A program made the position numbers and the translations under genes. Of a stretch of DNA of 53,673 bases, positions 9,730 to 53,673 are shown in pieces. The stretch is taken from the sequence record NC_079183. One strand, 5' to 3'. The notes under the pieces are model-generated. The model saw only the letters and a program-made list of their open reading frames with translations, ran no database searches and was not told where the DNA came from. Origin of the DNA: Escherichia phage vB_EcoM_SA91KD. Positions within the stretch are counted from its first letter, which is position 1. The number at the start of each line of letters is the position of its first letter.

Positions 9730-10080
9730 ATGAAAACTTTATACATTGCACTCACAATTTTGTTTGGGGTATTCGCATTCAAATCAGAAGCATCTGTTCG
9801 CAGCTTCCAGTGTGGCGGGTACAAAATGTCCGTTGAAACAATAACAATGAGCCAGCCACTCATTGCAACAATTTCTTTGCACGAGGGTACTTGGATTGAG
9901 ATTCCAGACAACGGAAATCCTAACCCAATGTCCACAGTGTTCTACAATACACAGAGCAGTAAGCTGGCCTTAGTTGGTGTTGACGCTGAGGAACGTTTGG
10001 TGCTACAGATTTATCGTGACATTGACTTCTTTCATGCCAAATTTCCATTGTTATCAACCTATTGTAAGGAAGTTAAATGA
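9730..10080 (+). CDS. Predicted secreted/periplasmic protein (116 aa)
   Basis: Signal-peptide-like N-terminus MKTLYIALTILFGVFAFKSEASV. Confidence 0.5.
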   Translation: MKTLYIALTILFGVFAFKSEASVRSFQCGGYKMSVETITMSQPLIATISLHEGTWIEIPDNGNPNPMSTVFYNTQSSKLALVGVDAEERLVLQIYRDIDFFHAKFPLLSTYCKEVK

Positions 10081-10310
10081 CGTCATCCGAATTTACCATT
10101 GATGGAGTACCATACTTACTTGAATCCAGTTGCGAATATCGTCACTGGTCAGTAATTCGCGACCGAGTAGTCAAATTCTTGGAGCGAGTAGGGAAAGATG
10201 CAGCTATTCTGACTACCGCCACAGTAGAAGGAACAACCGAAATCAATCGGGAGCTTGTATCTTTTAAATTAACCATCAACCCAACAGGAAATCCATTCCG
10301 TGAAAGTTGA
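10077..10310 (+). CDS. Hypothetical protein (77 aa)
   Basis: ORF in operon. Confidence 0.45.
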   Translation: MTSSEFTIDGVPYLLESSCEYRHWSVIRDRVVKFLERVGKDAAILTTATVEGTTEINRELVSFKLTINPTGNPFRES

Positions 10311-10569
10311 AGAACTGGCTGACCAACTTAAGGCAGCAAAACGAGAGTCTGCAAATCAATCAGAACGTGTTGCAAAACTGAAAGGGCAAGGCTCAACGTC
10401 CGAAGAAATCCAGTTATTTACAGATAATGTCTGGTTTTCAATGAATCGTGCACAATTTATCGAGATTCAGGAAGAACGTCTTACTGAACTGGAGAAGCGT
10501 GTAGAAACACTTGAGAGCTTGCTTGTAACACTGCAAGAAACTCTGGACCAGGAACTGAAAAATGTCTAA
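10300..10569 (+). CDS. Hypothetical coiled-coil protein (89 aa; start uncertain)
   Basis: Track ORF with GTG start overlapping the upstream stop. Confidence 0.4.
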   Translation: MKVEELADQLKAAKRESANQSERVAKLKGQGSTSEEIQLFTDNVWFSMNRAQFIEIQEERLTELEKRVETLESLLVTLQETLDQELKNV

Positions 10570-10978
10570 CGTTAAGCTGGGCCAACGCTCCCTTGACCGA
10601 CTCAAAGGTGTAAATCCTTCATTGGTGGCAGTTTTCAAGCGTGCATGTGAAACAATGCCGTTTGACGTAACTGTTCTTGAAGGATTGCGCACTTATGAGC
10701 GTCAACAAGAGCTTTTAAAGCAAGGTGCAACCAAAGTTCCAGTTAGCCGACACATGTCAGGCAACGCTTTAGATATTGCACCATATCCAATTGACTGGAA
10801 TGACCTCGAACGATTCAAAGTTTTAGCTCATCATATGTTCAAAGCTGCAAAAGAGCTTGGAATTACCATTCGTTGGGGTGGGAACTGGAGCCGTATTGAT
10901 GAAAATCAGCCGTATCCACCACTTGCACCAGGTAAGAAGAAGCTGATTGATATGCCGCACTTCGAACTTCCAGCATAA
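10562..10978 (+). CDS. Peptidase M15 (L-alanyl-D-glutamate peptidase type, T5-endolysin-like), 138 aa
   Basis: Zinc-site motifs SRHMSGNALDI and DMPHFE; region DIAPYPIDWNDLERF...KELGITIRWGGNW resembles the phage T5 endolysin (recalled from memory). Confidence 0.7.
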   Translation: MSNVKLGQRSLDRLKGVNPSLVAVFKRACETMPFDVTVLEGLRTYERQQELLKQGATKVPVSRHMSGNALDIAPYPIDWNDLERFKVLAHHMFKAAKELGITIRWGGNWSRIDENQPYPPLAPGKKKLIDMPHFELPA

Positions 10979-15888: not shown

Positions 15889-15895
15889 ATTATTT

Positions 15896-15982
15896 GGACG
15901 AGTAGCTCAGAAGGTCTGCTCCAGAGCTGGTAGAGCAATCTGTTCGACAGATGTGTCGTTGGTTCGAATCCAACCTCGTCCA
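15896..15982 (+). tRNA. tRNA-like element with atypical internal structure (possible pseudo-tRNA or non-canonical tRNA)
   Basis: Canonical 7-bp acceptor stem (GGACGAG / CTCGTCC) and T-arm (GTTGG-TTCGAAT-CCAAC) with discriminator A; the 55 nt between them cannot be folded by eye into standard D and anticodon arms. Anticodon not assignable. Confidence 0.35.
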
Positions 15983-16015
15983 CCCACTTTAATAATTCGC
16001 AATACTGGAGTCCTT

Positions 16016-16164: not shown

Positions 16165-16401
16165 ATGCAACAGCTTAAATCAATAATTCTTGGCGTCCTG
16201 ACTGCATTTGGCATTATCATTGCAGTGTTCCTCAAAGGCAAAAGCTCAGGCAAAGCCGAGGAGCGTCAGGAAGCCACAGAGAAGCAACTAGATTCATTAA
16301 AAGAATCTATCGAGATTAAGTCGCATGTTCAGAAAGAAGTGTCTAGCAGTTCTGATAGCAATGTCGATAGTGAGTTGCTCTCAAAGTGGGTTCGTAAGTG
16401 A
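16165..16401 (+). CDS. Membrane protein with N-terminal TM helix and charged helical periplasmic domain; i-spanin-like (78 aa)
   Basis: TM segment IILGVLTAFGIIIAVFL; aaggtg RBS; the next gene overlaps out of frame. Confidence 0.45.
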   Translation: MQQLKSIILGVLTAFGIIIAVFLKGKSSGKAEERQEATEKQLDSLKESIEIKSHVQKEVSSSSDSNVDSELLSKWVRK

Positions 16402-16534
16402 TTATTGCTTAATTGCACAACCAATCTATTTGGATGTTGCAGAAGTGAAAATATTATCACGCGAAACCAAAACACAGATTTTAGTCCACAATGAAACGTG
16501 GGCACAAAAGTGTTCGAAACTTACCCGACAGTGA
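16325..16534 (+). CDS. Predicted lipoprotein overlapping the 3' end of the preceding gene in another frame; o-spanin-like (69 aa)
   Basis: Signal/lipobox-like MFRKKCLAVLIAMSIVSC. The overlapped architecture is typical of Rz/Rz1. Confidence 0.4.
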   Translation: MFRKKCLAVLIAMSIVSCSQSGFVSDYCLIAQPIYLDVAEVKILSRETKTQILVHNETWAQKCSKLTRQ

Positions 16535-33083: not shown

Positions 33084-33658
33084 CGCCACCTCCAGCTCCT
33101 ACAGTATCTGCTGTTGTAGGGGCTGTAACTGCGGACGCATCTGCCTCTGATGCTACTGTAACTGTGGACAAACTGTTTGAATTTGAGAACTCCGCAGCAA
33201 CAGATTATAACTTCGCTGTTACACCTCCTGTGACTGGTGTTTCTGTGGCGGCAAACGGCACTGTGACTGTACTTAGTGCAACGACTACAGCCACTTCTGC
33301 GATAATCAAGGCAACGAATAAAACAGAATCTGGTGTAACTGCATCTAAACAGATTACGATTAAGCCTAAACCTCCTGCACCTACGGTGTCTGCTGTAGCT
33401 GGAGTTGTAACGGCTGATGCGTCTTCTACTGATGCCACTGTAACTGTAGACAAGCTGTTCAAGTTTGGTAACTCTACAGCAACAGACTACACCTACGCTA
33501 TTACGCCTCCTGTGACTGGCGTTTCTGTGGCTGCAAATGGTACTGTAACCGTCTTGAATGAGGCAACTACCGATACCTCTGCCACGGTTAAGGCAACAAA
33601 CAAAACAACCTCCAGCGTGACTGCAACTAAAGAAATTGCTATTACGCCGAAGTCTTAA
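33077..33658 (+). CDS. Frameshift extension ORF encoding two tandem Ig-like (BIG-type) domains
   Basis: Open in the -1 frame from the slippery site; no ATG or RBS of its own; two about 95-aa repeats (PPAPTVSAV...TVDKLF.F.NS.ATDY...ITPPVTGVSVAANGTVTVL...KATNKT). Confidence 0.55.
   Translation, partial: AVTPPPAPTVSAVVGAVTADASASDATVTVDKLFEFENSAATDYNFAVTPPVTGVSVAANGTVTVLSATTTATSAIIKATNKTESGVTASKQITIKPKPPAPTVSAVAGVVTADASSTDATVTVDKLFKFGNSTATDYTYAITPPVTGVSVAANGTVTVLNEATTDTSATVKATNKTTSSVTATKEIAITPKS
33086..33655 (+). repeat. Tandem duplication, two units of about 285 nt each
   Basis: Units at about 33086-33370 and 33371-33655 are clearly homologous at nucleotide and protein level. Confidence 0.8.
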
Positions 33659-42768: not shown

Positions 42769-42784
42769 CATTAGTTGAATATGT
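42769..42784 (+). promoter_or_regulatory. Promoter-like box variant (ttACATTAGTTGaATaTGta)
   Basis: Only copy noticed in the late region; about 25 nt upstream of the baseplate gene block. Confidence 0.4.
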
Positions 42785-48098: not shown

Positions 48099-49246
48099 TG
48101 ACTCAACGTCTTAAGTTTAATTTTCCCTGGGCGCAAGATGGTGAAGTTAAAGACCCGGACTTGGACACCACTGCGCCAAGTTTTATCGCAGACAGGTATG
48201 CCAACTTAGGTTGGGAAGTTGAAAAGCCACCTAACGAGTGGCAAAACTTTTTATCTCAAATTAGCGATTTAAAGATTATATCCCTCCTGTTTAGCGGTAT
48301 TGCTGAGTTTGATTCAAGTGTAACTTACCAGGTTGGTGCAGTATCCTCGCTTGATGGTGTTGTTCGTGTCTACACTCCCAAAGGTTGGGAAGAAGTATTG
48401 GACCTCAAAAAGGTTGAGTATCTTAACAACGTAAGTAACTTAAAGTCTATTTACGATGGGCACTTGGCTGCAACCAATCCTCATAAAGAAACTGTAGACA
48501 CCATCACAGACAAAACTTATAGCAAAGCTGCCATAGATGATGCCTTTGGTAGCAAGACAGACCCGAGAACTATTGTGTATCATAAGCTGCAAACTGGACG
48601 TGTCCACCAAGAGACTCCACAGCAGCTTGGAACACTGCCAACATCTGGCGGTAAGTTTTCTGGACCTGTGTCACTATTGGGTGGGATGAAGTTTGGGACA
48701 AACATCACAATTCAAATGAACCCAGGAAATGGGAGAATTGAGATGCGAGCAGGTAATAGGATTCTGTCCATCGATGCGCTTGGCAATGTTTTGTGGAGCA
48801 TAGTTGGTGGTGAAGAGTATCCAGTGATGACAGAACTGAACTACTCAGAGTTCCAGATGCGCTGGGGAAGCAGGTTCGCACTTCCTGTGCCGTACCTGGA
48901 CATGAATATTACCAAAACTTTAAATGACGCATCCTCCGTAAATGGTTGGACTATTTCAACATCTGCGCCTCCTGTTTTCCAGGCTGTAGACGGAGGACTT
49001 AGGGTAGATAACAACACAGTAACTTTCGAAGGCTTTCAGAACGCAGCACCAGGAACTTTTGTGGTTTATGCTATGGATGGCACAGGCAAGAAGTTGCGAG
49101 CTGTAGTAGACGCCCCTAGTGGAAACTACGCATCAATGAGCACACTTCTAACAAACCTAGGCCTGACAAATGCAACGTATGTTTCAAGGATAACATACTA
49201 CCCAAGACTGACAGCATACAACAAATCAATGTTAGCGAGCGTATAA
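48098..49246 (+). CDS. Tail fiber protein (382 aa)
   Basis: Follows the baseplate genes; Gly/Thr/Ser/Asn-rich beta-type composition. Confidence 0.5.
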   Translation: MTQRLKFNFPWAQDGEVKDPDLDTTAPSFIADRYANLGWEVEKPPNEWQNFLSQISDLKIISLLFSGIAEFDSSVTYQVGAVSSLDGVVRVYTPKGWEEVLDLKKVEYLNNVSNLKSIYDGHLAATNPHKETVDTITDKTYSKAAIDDAFGSKTDPRTIVYHKLQTGRVHQETPQQLGTLPTSGGKFSGPVSLLGGMKFGTNITIQMNPGNGRIEMRAGNRILSIDALGNVLWSIVGGEEYPVMTELNYSEFQMRWGSRFALPVPYLDMNITKTLNDASSVNGWTISTSAPPVFQAVDGGLRVDNNTVTFEGFQNAAPGTFVVYAMDGTGKKLRAVVDAPSGNYASMSTLLTNLGLTNATYVSRITYYPRLTAYNKSMLASV

Positions 49247-50605
49247 ATGGCAATTCGTCCTAAACTGAACCGAGTGTGGACTTCAAACAACTCTGTTGCA
49301 AGACGTGACCCAGGGGATGAAAAATACCTCAAGGGTTGGGTTGCGGAGATTCCGACCTATCAGGTTCTTAACTACCTGCAATACAAGATTGACACCACAA
49401 TGCTTGCACAAGCAGAGCGTGGAATCTTTGAGTGGGGAAATGATGTAAGTTATGGCGTTGGTAGTTTGGCTTGGGACGAAACAGACAAGACTATTTATGT
49501 TTGTACTGTCGCCAGTCCTAACAAAACACTACGCCCAAGTGCAAACTCTGCACAGTGGAGTCCAAGCTCCATCCAAGTTTCTCGTGCAAACTACGACTCA
49601 ATTGTTGCAGCAATCAATGCGCACATTGCAGACGTAACCACAAACCCGCACAAAGTAACTGCTGCACAAATTGGCGCATACAACAAGTCCGAGCTTGATT
49701 CGATTGTTGCCAACTACCGTGCAATGGTTCAAGCACACGTAGCGGACTATGACAACCCTCACAAACTTACTGCGGTCCAGGTTGGTGCTGTTCCTGTAAC
49801 TGGTGGTGCATACACTGGTGAAGTTACTTTCACGACTGTGTACCTGAATGACTCCAAGACTGCCCAGATTGTTAACGGTGGAGGTCTGTATCTTCGTAAT
49901 GGGAGCTACTACCTTGGAATTAACGGAACCACGGGAAATCCAGAGGCAGGTACTGCTGCAAGTAAGTCGCGCATTGTAACGGAACTAAACTTCCCAGATG
50001 TTAAGGCAGCACAAGAACCTGGGTATGCCACGCCACTTGAGTCGTTTCAAATGGGGCTTATCAATTCGATAAACATCCAGCGCGGGACTGGTACTGCATC
50101 CACCACAGGCGAGCCAGCATTCGACCCAAGTACCGGTATGTTAGGTATTAACAATGTGGAGTTTAAGTTGGAGATGTCTGATATTGTTCGGCTCCCCAGC
50201 AACTATGAATTCACCATTTGTTTTGATTACCTCCACACATTTCTGCCAGACCGCTCCGATTGGAGTATCGCCGCAGGAACAAACCTTGCCAGAATCTTGG
50301 TTCGTAAAAATGGCACATTGGCTATATATGTGTATATCCCATCTGCCAATAAAAATGCAATTTTTGCTTCTGCGACAATTCCAGCGTCCCTTAGCGGAAC
50401 AATTGTTCGGATAGTCGGTGTATATGATGGGTCTACATATAGGTTGTATATAAACGGCGTGTTGGCTGCATCACAGGCTGGGGCACCTCCTGCCGACAGC
50501 TCTGCACCAAGCATCTATATTCCAAAGTATCCTGATACAGTTCGTATCAGAAACTTTAGGCTGTGGCCTTCCGCGCTAACTGCCAAACAGATTTCAACTT
50601 TATAG
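49247..50605 (+). CDS. Tail fiber protein with NPHK(V/L)TA(A/V)Q(I/V)GA repeats (452 aa)
   Basis: Short conserved fiber-like repeats. Confidence 0.55.
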   Translation: MAIRPKLNRVWTSNNSVARRDPGDEKYLKGWVAEIPTYQVLNYLQYKIDTTMLAQAERGIFEWGNDVSYGVGSLAWDETDKTIYVCTVASPNKTLRPSANSAQWSPSSIQVSRANYDSIVAAINAHIADVTTNPHKVTAAQIGAYNKSELDSIVANYRAMVQAHVADYDNPHKLTAVQVGAVPVTGGAYTGEVTFTTVYLNDSKTAQIVNGGGLYLRNGSYYLGINGTTGNPEAGTAASKSRIVTELNFPDVKAAQEPGYATPLESFQMGLINSINIQRGTGTASTTGEPAFDPSTGMLGINNVEFKLEMSDIVRLPSNYEFTICFDYLHTFLPDRSDWSIAAGTNLARILVRKNGTLAIYVYIPSANKNAIFASATIPASLSGTIVRIVGVYDGSTYRLYINGVLAASQAGAPPADSSAPSIYIPKYPDTVRIRNFRLWPSALTAKQISTL

Positions 50606-50613
50606 GATTCAAA

Positions 50614-51651
50614 ATGGCTAAAGGTTATTCTTTAGATGCATTGGTTAAGGAGAAGTGGTCAAGGTACACCACTTCCGTGACCACTGGTACAGACTTCGAC
50701 AACCTAAATACTGTAGAGCTTAGTGGAATATATTACATTCCATCAATATCTCTTGCGAACAGTCTTCTTAATATCCCGGTTAAGGTCGCTGGCATTGTAG
50801 AAGTTCTTCCGTGGTCCAACTCCACAGGGTGCGTCATACAAAGGTTTACCACATACAGCGATGGGACTGAGTGGAAGAGGTCATATGATGGGGTTAAGTG
50901 GTCCCCGTGGAGCCAGACACTAACATCGTTAAACGTATTTAGTGTAATGTACCCAATAGGCATTGTCGTCCAGTTTGATAACGCCACTAACCCAAACAAC
51001 TCCTTCATCGGAACTGTGTGGGAACAGATTGTAGATGGCCGCTCTGCCCGTGCTGCCACTGGTCCGGAAGCTGGTACGGCTGATGGTCAGATTGGTTCAG
51101 TAGCTGGGTCTGATACAACCACGATTGCTGTGACAAACATGCCAGGCCACACGCACGGTATGCAGAACCACACGCACGGTATTGCATCTCACACCCACAC
51201 GATGGCTCACACCCACACCATTAACCATGACCACGGTGCAGTGACGTCAAGCTCTGCTGGTGCACACACTCACACAGTATCTGGTACTGCTGCAAGTAAT
51301 GGCAACCACACTCACACTGTGCCGTCGGTTAACGGTGGTAACTCAGGTGGTAGCATACCACTCCGCTCAGGCCGCAATGACGTAGAATCAAACTCTACAA
51401 ACACTGGCACTGCTGGTGCACATACTCACTCAGTAAGCGGAACTGCTGCCTCTTCTGGCGCTCACACGCACTCTGTTGACTTACCCAACTTCACAGGTAC
51501 AAGTGGTGGCTCCAGTGCTGGTAACACAGGCGGTACGGCACTGACCACTGGTGGCCCCAGCAATAACGAAACAACCTCAACTGGTGGCGGGACCGCACTC
51601 AATGTGCGCAACTCTTCACACTATTACGCCTTCTGGAAACGGGTGGCTTAA
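50614..51651 (+). CDS. Tail fiber / collar-domain protein with multiple H-T-H triads (about 345 aa)
   Basis: ATG after agga RBS (track ORF starts at 50563); repeats PGHTHG, NHTHG, SHTHT, AHTHT, GAHTHTV, NHTHTV, GAHTHSV (x2); Gly/Ser/Thr-rich. Confidence 0.55.
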   Translation: MAKGYSLDALVKEKWSRYTTSVTTGTDFDNLNTVELSGIYYIPSISLANSLLNIPVKVAGIVEVLPWSNSTGCVIQRFTTYSDGTEWKRSYDGVKWSPWSQTLTSLNVFSVMYPIGIVVQFDNATNPNNSFIGTVWEQIVDGRSARAATGPEAGTADGQIGSVAGSDTTTIAVTNMPGHTHGMQNHTHGIASHTHTMAHTHTINHDHGAVTSSSAGAHTHTVSGTAASNGNHTHTVPSVNGGNSGGSIPLRSGRNDVESNSTNTGTAGAHTHSVSGTAASSGAHTHSVDLPNFTGTSGGSSAGNTGGTALTTGGPSNNETTSTGGGTALNVRNSSHYYAFWKRVA

Positions 51652-51659
51652 GGAAAACA

Positions 51660-52001
51660 ATGGAACGACTATCCATTCAGATGTTTGTGGACCTGATGCA
51701 CCAATATGGCGTATGGCACGGATTATTGGCTGGTCTTACGGCTTTAATTCGTGGGGCATATGAGAGTGAAGGCTTAAGCAAGGCGCTGCTGGATGCGGCG
51801 CTGTGCAGCTTAATCGGCTTGTTTGCCTTTCATGTTGCTGGCACATTTGAAACCTTCACGACTAACGTCACTATGCAGTTAGTATTGGCTATCGTGATTG
51901 GTGTCATCGGTGCAAACCTCATTATTACAACTGTCAGGGAAAGTTTCTCTGGCGCAATCAAACAACTTAATCCTTTGACGTGGTTCAAGAAGGCACGATG
52001 A
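51660..52001 (+). CDS. Holin-like membrane protein (113 aa)
   Basis: Two to three hydrophobic helices, charged C-terminus, immediately upstream of a cell-wall hydrolase. Confidence 0.55.
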   Translation: MERLSIQMFVDLMHQYGVWHGLLAGLTALIRGAYESEGLSKALLDAALCSLIGLFAFHVAGTFETFTTNVTMQLVLAIVIGVIGANLIITTVRESFSGAIKQLNPLTWFKKAR

Positions 52002-52018
52002 AATGATAAGGAACTCGA

Positions 52019-52573
52019 ATGCTATCATTCAAAGTCCTTGCAGTTCTGGCAGCTTTAGTTCACATCAACGCCCCAGCTTCGGTTGGGGCAGTGAATTCTG
52101 CTATTACAGATTTTGCAAGTCATTCTTATTTAAATGGAAGTCTGAAACTATCTTCTTCACAACGCAAAGAGCTAGAATGCTATACTAAAGTTATCTGGTA
52201 TGAAGCTCGCGGAGAAGACAAACATGGAAAGATTCTGGTAGCTAATGTCGTCCGTAATAGAACAGAGTTCGGGAAGCCATTCGCTAACACCGTTTGTGAT
52301 GTTGTCTATCAACGCAATCAATTTGCATGGACACGAGAAGCAAAGAAGAAGAATGCCCAATGGAAGCATGTAGCAAAGATTAATTATGCCACAGAACAAC
52401 AACAAGTTCTGGACACCATTAATGTTGCAATCTCTTTTGTACTATTTAATCAACCCTCTGTCACCAAAGCAACCCACTTTTGTACAGCATCGGAGAAGTG
52501 CAACTTCAAGAATGTTAAAGGTTTGGGTCGTTATGGTGGCCATAAATTCTATGAGTATCTAGGAAATCTGTGA
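52019..52573 (+). CDS. Cell-wall hydrolase, SleB / Hydrolase_2 family, with N-terminal signal sequence (184 aa)
   Basis: Signal-like [24 protein letters not shown]; core [24 protein letters not shown]...[17 protein letters not shown]. Confidence 0.7.
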
Positions 52574-53673
52574 TGGCTTACACTACCTTTTCGCAAACCA
52601 AGAATAACCAACTACTAGAGCCAATGTTCTTTGGTCAGAATGTTAACGTTGCTCGATATGACCAACAGAAGTACAGCATCTTCGAGAAGTTAATCGAGAA
52701 GCAGTTATCTTTCTTTTGGCGACCTGAAGAGGTTGATGTTAGCCAGGACCGAATTGACTATGCTGGTCTTCCTGAATGTGAGAAGCACATCTTCACCAGC
52801 AATTTACGATACCAAATCCTGCTTGACTCCATTCAGGGACGCGGGCCAACTACAGTTTTGCTGCCAATTGTGAGCATTCCTGAACTGGAAACTTGGATTG
52901 AAACTTGGTCATTCTCAGAGACAATTCACTCCCGTTCTTACACGCATATTATTCGTAATATCGTGACAGACCCAAGTGTAATTTTCGATGAAATTGTGGA
53001 GAATGAGCACATTAAAATGCGTGCAATTGGCATATCACAATATTATGATGAGCTTCAACATCTAACTTCCATGTGGCATCTGCATGAAGATAAAGTTTCT
53101 CTTCGTGAGCTTAAGAAGAAGCTATATTTATGCCTCATGTCCATTAATGCACTAGAAGCAATCCGCTTTTATGTCAGCTTTGCTTGCTCATTTGCCTTCG
53201 CTGAACGCAAGTTAATGGAAGGAAATGCCAAGATTATTCGCTTAATTGCTCGTGATGAAGCACTCCATTTGACTGGAACTCAGCACATGCTGAACCTTCT
53301 TGCAAGCGGTGTTGATGACCCAGAAATGGCAGAAATTGCTAAAGAATGCCGCCAAGAATGCCAAGAAATGTTCGAAAATGTGGCCCAACAAGAGAAAGAT
53401 TGGGCTGATTATTTGTTCAAAGATGGCTCCATGATAGGCTTAAATAAGCAAATTCTGTGCGGATATGTGGAATATATTACAAATATTCGTATGCAAGCAG
53501 TTGGATTGGATGCTCCATTCAAAGGTGCTACTAACCCGATTCCTTGGATTAACGCATGGTTGAATTCGGATGCTGTACAAGTTGCTCCACAAGAAACGGA
53601 GATTAGTTCGTACCTTGTCGGGCAGATTGATTCCGAAGTTGACACCAATGCTCTGGGCGGATTTGAGCTTTAA
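52570..53673 (+). CDS. nrdB: Ribonucleotide reductase class Ia small subunit NrdB (367 aa)
   Basis: Long stretches match enterobacterial NrdB as I recall it ([109 protein letters not shown]). ORF ends at the last base of the window. Confidence 0.85.

Follow-up and report, generated by a model that had tools for sequence, protein, structure and literature searches.

Holin and SleB-type hydrolase of Escherichia phage vB_EcoM_SA91KD: a sequence-based reappraisal of the lysis module of Chaseviridae

The closest described counterparts of the lysis genes considered here are gp73/gp74 of phiEcoM-GJ1, ORF77/78 of ST32, 079/080 of Mangalitsa, and orf78/79 of PP101, which consist of the same two genes, a holin and a SleB-like hydrolase, in the same order and in the same position after the tail fibres. 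An M15 peptidase gene and a distant spanin are also common to the phiEcoM-GJ1-like phages. The pair analyzed here lies in sequence record NC_079183, from Escherichia phage vB_EcoM_SA91KD, whose whole stretch of 53,673 nucleotides (nt) is referred to below as the window. Its holin gene (51660-52001, + strand) and its hydrolase gene (52019-52573, + strand) show no structural difference from those of the phiEcoM-GJ1-like modules. What differs is the interpretation, since the published one is a signal-arrest-release (SAR) endolysin with a pinholin, and ours is a hydrolase with a probably cleavable signal peptide next to a lambda-S-type holin.

The module itself is already known, as the hydrolase of the window and the protein annotated as endolysin in phage vB_EcoM_JL1 are 100% identical, and the papers on ST32, SKA49, and PP101 describe a holin together with an endolysin carrying an export signal. 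What is added here is a leader resembling a signal peptide, a holin resembling that of lambda, and a conserved slot for a leaderless peptidase, and on this sequence evidence the widespread 'SAR endolysin / pinholin' label for Chaseviridae appears to be wrong. The interpretation towards which we lean, with moderate confidence, is that of a late lysis cassette in which a secreted and processed SleB-type enzyme and a lambda-S-type holin act together with an M15 enzyme released by the holin.

Sec-dependent, holin-independent export followed by lysis at a time set by the holin is also the strategy of R21/S21 and of P1 Lyz/LydA, the export being, in our case, a predicted one. The P1 system illustrates that an exported endolysin can pair with a holin other than a pinholin. 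However, the SAR domains of R21 and P1 Lyz are uncleaved, membrane-spanning, Gly/Ala-rich segments of 20 residues, contrary to the 9-residue core and the conserved cleavage site found here, and the catalytic families also differ, R21 and Lyz being lysozyme-type enzymes and the present one a member of Hydrolase_2. Another system to be considered is Lys44 from the Oenococcus phage fOg44, which is said to have a typical signal peptide, to be encoded next to a holin, and to be exported before lysis, with a reported dependence on the energized envelope. Unlike Lys44, the hydrolase of the window acts in a Gram-negative host, belongs to another enzyme family, and is accompanied by a second, cytoplasmic hydrolase and by spanins.

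The SleB-like proteins of T5-like (Demerecviridae) and rV5-like (Vequintavirinae) phages are, as here, small one-domain enzymes with a classic signal peptide and a conserved Cys pair, which co-occur in their genomes with an M15 L-Ala-D-Glu peptidase (CB7 being the rV5-like instance). In the T5-like phages, however, the SleB-like gene lies away from the holin, whose neighbor is the M15 gene, and the N-terminal extension of 30 residues described below is lacking. Finally, the Bacillus proteins SleB and CwlJ (4F55, 4FET) have in common with the phage hydrolase the catalytic fold and the E-x-R-G-E...V-x-N-R...Q-F block. The phage protein differs from SleB in the absence of an N-terminal peptidoglycan-binding domain, in its sequence (~20% identity), and in the presence of an extra Cys pair and an N-terminal helix. 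The wall of its host is not known to contain muramic delta-lactam, which is the substrate determinant of SleB.

The SleB-type hydrolase and its leader

An initial annotation of this DNA, made from the sequence alone, had proposed at this locus a holin followed by a cell-wall hydrolase of the SleB family, and both open reading frames (ORFs) match that proposal exactly, each of them with its own family matches. The hydrolase is a SleB/Hydrolase_2-type protein of 184 amino acids, acting on peptidoglycan, whose residues 65-178 match the Pfam family Hydrolase_2 (PF07486; E 1.1e-15, 58.5 bits with a cut-off of 27), and which also matches PHROG 938 'endolysin' (4.3e-20). Its sequence matches no solved structures other than 4F55 and 4FET, both of them SleB catalytic domains, over the YEARGE...VANVVRNR block. 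The AlphaFold model of the protein, obtained with 25 homologues, has a mean predicted local distance difference test score (pLDDT) of 87.5, and a Foldseek search with it returned 4FET and 4F55 as the only meaningful matches in the PDB, with a probability of 1.00 and target-normalized template modeling (TM) scores of 0.64-0.66. The motifs on which the SleB/Hydrolase_2 assignment had originally been based (YEARGE, VANVVRNR, and QFAW, the last within ...QRNQFAW) are all present, and the Pfam and fold matches agree with it, far beyond chance. Within the genus, the hydrolase is 96-100% identical, and in other genera of Chaseviridae the identity is 56-74%.

The catalytic core segment extends from C54 to C93 (52178-52297, + strand) and includes the invariant Y61-E62-A-R-G-E66 (52199-52216), which aligns to GESRGE of SleB and whose E62 and E66 are found in 25/25 aligned homologues. 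We take the glutamate of the E-x-R-G-E motif to be the catalytic acid of SleB, which would correspond here to either E62 or E66, and the chemistry of the phage enzyme is probably that of a lytic transglycosylase. The protein does not qualify as a true SleB equivalog in NCBIfam, as it reaches 29.4 bits with TIGR02869, whose cut-off is 236.5, and only over residues 45-105, and no match to the PG_binding Pfam domain was found in it.

Two cysteines, C54 (52178-52180) and C93 (52295-52297), never vary among the 25 aligned homologues, in which C155 and C161 are either both present (20 sequences) or both absent (5). In a wider set, an equivalent of C54 was found in 122/122 representatives with a recognizable catalytic motif, 110 of which have a leader. 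Judging from the conservation and co-variation of the cysteines only, the hydrolase probably forms one or two disulfides, C54-C93 and C155-C161. The mature protein would begin with a conserved extension (residues 21-50; 52079-52168, + strand) that contains a helix at residues 22-38 and the pattern FASxSYLxGxLxLSxxQ. All the versions from Chaseviridae have this extension, whereas the T5-type homologues (Bf23) lack it, and its role could be structural or regulatory.

The leader was judged by means of an additive window on the Hessa scale, the length of the apolar run, the -3/-1 rule, and its conservation in the family, using as controls P1 Lyz (100% match), R21, and T4 RI, whose sequences were verified in a phage database. 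The longest apolar run of the hydrolase has 9 residues (VLAVLAALV), and its best 19-residue window has an additive free energy (dG) of +5.1 kcal/mol. The SAR domains of P1 Lyz and R21, by contrast, have apolar runs of 20 residues each and dG values of +0.46 and +0.78, respectively, and the cleaved signal peptide of T4 RI has a run of 15 residues and a dG of +2.2. Textbook signal peptides from E. coli show runs of 7-18 residues and values between +2.4 and +8.1. In the hydrolase, the n-region consists of K5, the h-region spans V6-V14, and the c-region (H15-A20) ends in the site A18-P19-A20/S21. The residues following the apolar run are H-I-N-A-P-A/S-V-G-A/V, with slashes at the candidate cleavage points. 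Cleavage is most likely to take place after A20, at a site that is aligned family-wide, and otherwise after A24, so that the predicted signal peptide would comprise residues 1-20 (52019-52078, + strand) or extend through 52090.

The same organization is found across the family. The medians over 60 full-length homologues are +4.7 for the dG and 11 residues for the apolar run. Column 5 of the alignment is mostly Lys, columns 6-14 are hydrophobic, columns 15-17 are polar, column 18 is A or V, column 20 is A or S, and column 21 is S or T, which is the n-h-c profile in its classical form, with a -3/-1 site. No other part of the protein is as poorly conserved as the leader, whose mean pairwise identity is 37% versus 74% for the catalytic core and which is also outside the confident part of the AlphaFold model (pLDDT <50 at residues 1-19, with a confident fold from about residue 22). 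More distant members possess signal peptides that are easily recognized: that of the Erwinia phage Fifi44 homologue is unmistakable (MRKLFCIMLLIFAWNTSALA, followed by TAD), and others are present in the homologue of the T5-like phage Bf23 (MKAALLLVAALTFSFSSQA, followed by SHD) and in metagenomic homologues (MKYFKVLAFVLVLFTQHALA and MKKFMCLLFLLFSFQSHA, followed by HS and NF, respectively). The homologue from the Acidovorax phage ACP17 has a similar one.

Taken at the level of sequence, the leader is probably a cleavable Sec signal peptide. The initial annotation had read it in this way, the n-h-c layout, the 9-residue core, and the conserved -3/-1 site agree with that reading, and the export independent of the holin that it had deduced would indeed be the most likely route for a protein with such a leader. 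The features expected from a SAR domain are a segment of ~20 residues, rich in Gly, Ala, and Ser, that spans the membrane, and no signal-peptidase site; the leader contains no such segment, and its sequence has conserved small residues at -3 and -1. Other interpretations of the N-terminus were also rejected: a lipoprotein leader, as there is no Cys in it; a Tat signal, as it has no twin arginine; a leaderless isoform arising from an internal start, as no Met follows the initial one; and a role as virion-associated entry lysin, as a Sec leader is incompatible with packaging in the cytoplasm.

Export would represent only one of the two modes in which phage enzymes of the Hydrolase_2 family operate. 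When 1.84 billion cluster representatives were searched with a profile, 20,511 relatives were found at E up to 0.001, and among the nearest 149 of them ~88% have an N-terminal hydrophobic leader, half fitting simple signal-peptide criteria. In the lambdoid Pseudomonas phage PAJU2, the Hydrolase_2 enzyme has neither a leader nor C54, and its gene is found after the antiterminator Q gene and a membrane protein (holin), in the canonical place of an endolysin. The family thus includes cytoplasmic, holin-dependent versions as well as exported ones, and the hydrolase of the window would belong to the exported kind, probably stabilized by periplasmic disulfides.

The adjacent holin and the other lysis genes

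The holin encoded upstream of the hydrolase is a protein of 113 amino acids from the lambda S family (class I). It matches the Pfam family Phage_holin_3_1, the lambda S family (PF05106; E 6.8e-8, 33.3 bits with a cut-off of 23.8), PHROG 126 'holin/anti-holin' (1.2e-17), and, in BLASTP, lambda S itself over residues 22-94, with 26% identity (E 6e-7). Its score with NCBIfam holin_lambda, 30.6 bits, is beneath the strict equivalog cut-off of 55, which makes it a distant member of the family. Hydropathy minima define three hydrophobic segments (~18-34, 47-63, and 74-90) ahead of a C-terminal tail that is basic (...WFKKAR), and these segments line up with the transmembrane domains (TMDs) of lambda S, in a topology derived from hydropathy only. 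As regards the S21 pinholin type, no match between the holin and Phage_holin_2_1 appeared at E up to 0.1. On this sequence evidence, it is a three-segment protein of the lambda S family rather than a two-TMD pinholin like that of phage 21. The three segments, the homology to lambda S, and the lack of likeness to S21 leave the 'pin-holin' label of the SKA49 paper with no support from the sequence.

For the same reason, the pinholin-type logic proposed in the initial annotation is not supported as a description of this holin. The M15 enzyme, being leaderless and cytoplasmic, would also need large holes to reach the wall. The holin may form large, non-specific holes, although a sequence does not give hole size with certainty. 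Regarding a dual start, E2 and R3 lie between M1 and M8 of the holin (net charge 0), M8 has no Shine-Dalgarno sequence, and the Met positions vary among relatives (M1/M5 in PP101, and different again in Fifi44). No convincing dual-start antiholin motif was seen in the holin. The adjacency of holin and hydrolase is kept in three other genera of Chaseviridae, including those of PP101 and Fifi44.

The M15 enzyme that had been contemplated beforehand as an alternative lysis enzyme does exist in the same phage. It is a T5 Lys-like L-alanyl-D-glutamate peptidase of 138 amino acids (10562-10978, + strand; Pfam Peptidase_M15_4, 1.5e-8), orthologous to the T5 enzyme, and annotated in relatives as endolysin or L-Ala-D-Glu peptidase. 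It has no export leader, as no hydrophobic window was found in it (best dG +11.7). The presence of two enzymes has been noticed before: the authors of the ST32 paper named both the M15 and the SleB-like genes 'endolysin', and the SKA49 paper explicitly mentions two hydrolases while calling the module 'SAR endolysin ... pin-holin'. M15 and SleB-like genes are found together throughout the Carltongylesvirus, Faunus, and Loessnervirus phages. In the Pectobacterium phage PP101 (Suwonvirus), the M15 slot, just upstream of the antirestriction gene, is occupied by a leaderless CHAP-domain hydrolase (9739-10215). The occurrence of M15 here and of CHAP at the same position in PP101 indicates that a cytoplasmic peptide-cutting enzyme has been maintained by non-orthologous replacement.

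A putative spanin pair was additionally detected when all ORFs were scanned for lipoboxes. The putative i-spanin (78 amino acids; 16165-16401, + strand) has an N-terminal transmembrane segment and is unusually short, and the putative o-spanin (69 amino acids; 16325-16534, + strand) is a lipoprotein with the lipobox IVSC, whose gene overlaps that of the i-spanin in another frame. A survey of spanins lists phiEcoM-GJ1 among the phages with two-component spanins (PMC6139136). The pair closely follows the single tRNA gene (tRNA-Ser, 15895-15986), at a distance of ~35 kb from the holin.

Proposed lysis mechanism and its alternatives

The late lysis cassette that we favor would operate as follows, its starting points being the ORFs, the family and fold assignments, the properties and conservation of the leader, and the homology of the holin established above. 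Late in infection, holin and hydrolase would be transcribed from the distal part of the late tail-fibre operon. The hydrolase would be exported by Sec with no help from the holin and cleaved after A20 (or A24), and it would fold in the periplasm and probably acquire one or two disulfides there, while the lambda-S-type holin would build up in the inner membrane. Upon triggering, the holin would breach this membrane and allow the leaderless M15 peptidase to reach the wall from the cytoplasm, so that the sacculus would be destroyed jointly by a glycan-cutting and a peptide-cutting enzyme. The spanin pair at 16165-16534 would then disrupt the outer membrane. Such timing and cooperation would also require that the periplasmic enzyme be restrained before triggering, for which the candidates would be a low late expression, a dependence on the energized envelope, or a substrate preference met only after the action of the peptidase. 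The depolarization logic of the SAR endolysins is not directly transferable, since a cleaved soluble enzyme has no tether to release.

Several observations weigh against this scheme. A free and active muralytic enzyme in the periplasm should lyse the cell early, and the sequence shows no restraint. In T5-like phages, the SleB-like gene with a signal peptide is not the holin's partner, so that membership of this family does not by itself imply a primary endolysin. Concerning the leader, the additive dG is crude when used alone, as it gives +0.4 for that of Fifi44, which is short and very hydrophobic and in other respects a classic signal peptide; the n-region carries little charge, with one Lys, and is uncharged in several homologues; and the uncharged N-terminal stretch is 25 residues long, which is presumably why curators working with TMHMM-type tools chose the term 'SAR endolysin'. 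Finally, our literature search found no experiment on any lysis protein from Chaseviridae. The paper on the 'Chaseviridae' endolysin of Pantoea phage PA1 deals with an unrelated SPN1S-type lysozyme, that on Acidovorax phage AP1 with an endolysin carrying a C-terminal TMD, and that on phage Tiny contains no lysis data.

According to the published label, an uncleaved and weakly hydrophobic anchor would keep the enzyme tethered and inactive until the membrane is depolarized through a pinholin. Mangalitsa, DE15, and 4HA13 are annotated in this way ('SAR endolysin'), the papers on PP101 ('holin-SAR endolysin') and SKA49 ('SAR endolysin ... pin-holin') use the same terms, the uncharged stretch of 25 residues contains several Ala, Ser, and Gly, and a tether would account for the avoidance of premature lysis. 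We nevertheless regard this explanation as very unlikely, because the apolar core has only 9-11 residues and is broken by His, Asn, and Pro, with a dG far from the values of the two SAR controls; the -3/-1 cleavage site is conserved family-wide; distant members have unmistakable signal peptides; the leader remains outside the confident AlphaFold fold; and the three-segment holin is of the lambda S family and not of the S21 type. There is also a precedent in T4 RI, whose leader was long taken as a SAR domain until experiments showed it to be a cleaved signal peptide (PMC8385771). At the other extreme, the leader might not be used at all, in which case the protein would stay in the cytoplasm until the holin releases it in the manner of a canonical endolysin, as could be suspected from the weakly basic n-region and the existence of leaderless Hydrolase_2 endolysins such as that of PAJU2. 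This we consider extremely improbable, given that the n-h-c profile and the -3/-1 site have been kept despite a rapid turnover of the sequence, that leaders occur in ~88% of the 149 nearest relatives, that the conserved Cys pair is typical of oxidizing compartments, and that there is no internal Met for a leaderless form.

A more serious alternative, even if still on the unlikely side, is that the true endolysin is the leaderless M15 enzyme (CHAP in Suwonvirus), acting through large holes, and that the SleB-like protein is a non-essential periplasmic helper, which may accelerate the breakdown of the sacculus or deal with particular wall states, as perhaps in T5-like and rV5-like phages. The lysis genes of the T5-like phages are the holin and the M15 enzyme Lys, with the signal-peptide SleB homologue elsewhere, and the Vequintavirinae likewise carry a SleB homologue beside other hydrolases. 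A holin of a large-hole family is needed only for a cytoplasmic enzyme, the slot of which has survived non-orthologous replacement, and the literature regards the M15 orthologues as endolysins. On the other side, the SleB-like gene comes directly after the holin in all the Chaseviridae examined, with a tight spacing of 17 nt in the window, and is highly conserved within the genus (96-100% identity). In addition, the PAJU2 enzyme, leaderless and in the canonical position, indicates that the family can provide a primary endolysin, and a homologue with a signal peptide from the Vequintavirinae has been reported to be toxic when expressed on its own in E. coli (PMC7344957).

Turning back to the secreted and processed SleB-type enzyme, a bolder version of the proposal, which we deem decidedly unlikely, would make it the first example in a coliphage of a soluble, processed periplasmic endolysin that is gated by the energy state of the envelope or by a relay between two enzymes. 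One possibility for such a relay is a two-key system, in which the SleB-type enzyme would be efficient only on glycan strands whose peptides had already been cut by the M15 (or CHAP) enzyme. This idea echoes the preference of SleB for muramic residues free of peptides, and, if true, its logic could explain the co-occurrence of signal-peptide SleB homologues and M15 enzymes in T5-like phages. The conserved combination, in Chaseviridae, of a glycan-cutting enzyme that is secreted and a peptide-cutting one that stays in the cytoplasm, which is seen again with M15 in T5-like phages and CB7, hints in any case at an unstudied division of labor. If the hydrolase is indeed a cleaved soluble periplasmic endolysin in E. 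coli, the prevention of early lysis would be a question left unanswered by current models of Gram-negative lysis, and this phage would offer a genetically easy coliphage in which to study the restraint of such an enzyme. Cloning of the enzyme as an antibacterial would also be affected, since its mature form would probably begin near S21 and would probably depend on the formation of disulfides.

Genomic context of the lysis pair

A megablast search with 51400-53673 matched 45 phage records, the top one being Escherichia phage vB_EcoM_JL1 (96.4% identity over the full length), followed by DE15, Bp7, flopper, SKA49, ST32, Mangalitsa, and phiEcoM-GJ1. The matching phages belong to Carltongylesvirus, Chaseviridae (phiEcoM-GJ1-like myophages), and their annotation gives the same four genes in order: tail fibre, holin, endolysin, and ribonucleotide reductase small subunit. 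The hydrolase appears in these relatives under the names 'endolysin', 'SAR endolysin', 'spore cortex-lytic enzyme', and 'lytic transglycosylase'. Two records attract attention for their labels, GenBank PP952070.1 ('Staphylococcus phage Pel53', labeled as a Staphylococcus hyicus phage) and PP763568.1 ('Aeromonas phage phiA050'), which was flagged alongside it. PP952070.1 is 88.5% identical at the DNA level over the lysis locus, and its hydrolase and M15 enzyme have 95.7% and 97.1% amino-acid identity, respectively, to those of the coliphage group. The attribution to a Staphylococcus host looks doubtful, since this phage has Gram-negative spanins and an exported periplasmic enzyme.

The window, by its size, corresponds to a complete Carltongylesvirus genome, and all of its large ORFs are on the + strand. 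The tail-fibre gene upstream of the holin (50563-51651, with its stop codon at 51649-51651) matches the Gp10_C and phage-fibre repeat models, and two stretches of 70 nt were singled out within it (51251-51320 and 51407-51476). The Shine-Dalgarno sequence of the holin gene, AAGGA (51650-51654, + strand), overlaps the tail-fibre stop, which leaves no room for a promoter between both genes, and the holin ORF begins 8 nt past that stop. The hydrolase ORF begins 17 nt past the holin stop, with an AAGGA of its own at 52008-52012. Downstream, the start of nrdB, encoding the small subunit of ribonucleotide reductase (52570-53673, + strand; Pfam Ribonuc_red_sm, 3.8e-49), overlaps the stop codon of the hydrolase (GTGATG / TGA). 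This gene is a neighbor with no part in lysis; it is missing after the hydrolase in PP101, which has no nrdB altogether. In the close relative Mangalitsa, no gene for the large subunit of ribonucleotide reductase is annotated. The GC content falls from 0.52 (51001-52000) to 0.41 (52001-53000), and the boundary between holin and hydrolase may therefore be a mosaic junction.

A scan of 49000-53673 for sigma-70 promoters and terminators gave no signal above chance. The motif CATTAGTTGGATGTGA, by contrast with the 0.82 occurrences expected by chance, has 11 sites of 16 nt each, all of them on the + strand, at 573, 2720, 3570, 7977, 12115, 12256, 12393, 14559, 22900, 27979, and 42769. It is probably the promoter consensus of a phage-encoded single-subunit RNA polymerase, and as such it would define the transcription units of the phage. 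The last copy upstream of the lysis pair is found at 42769-42784 (+ strand), ~9 kb before holin and hydrolase, and its position, together with the absence of sigma-70 or terminator signals nearby, would make these two the distal genes of the late structural operon. By the same reasoning, the M15 gene would be part of the unit starting from 7977 and the spanin genes of that starting from 14559.

Two further observations concern other parts of the window. A tandem duplication with a unit of 282 nt and 75% identity (33088-33651) is located in the head-gene region, in or near the ORF 33164-33658. The ORF at 9730-10080 encodes 116 amino acids that open with a typical signal peptide (MKTLYIALTILFGVFAFKSEA, followed by S), and its product would be another small exported protein, encoded in the early/middle region near the M15 gene.

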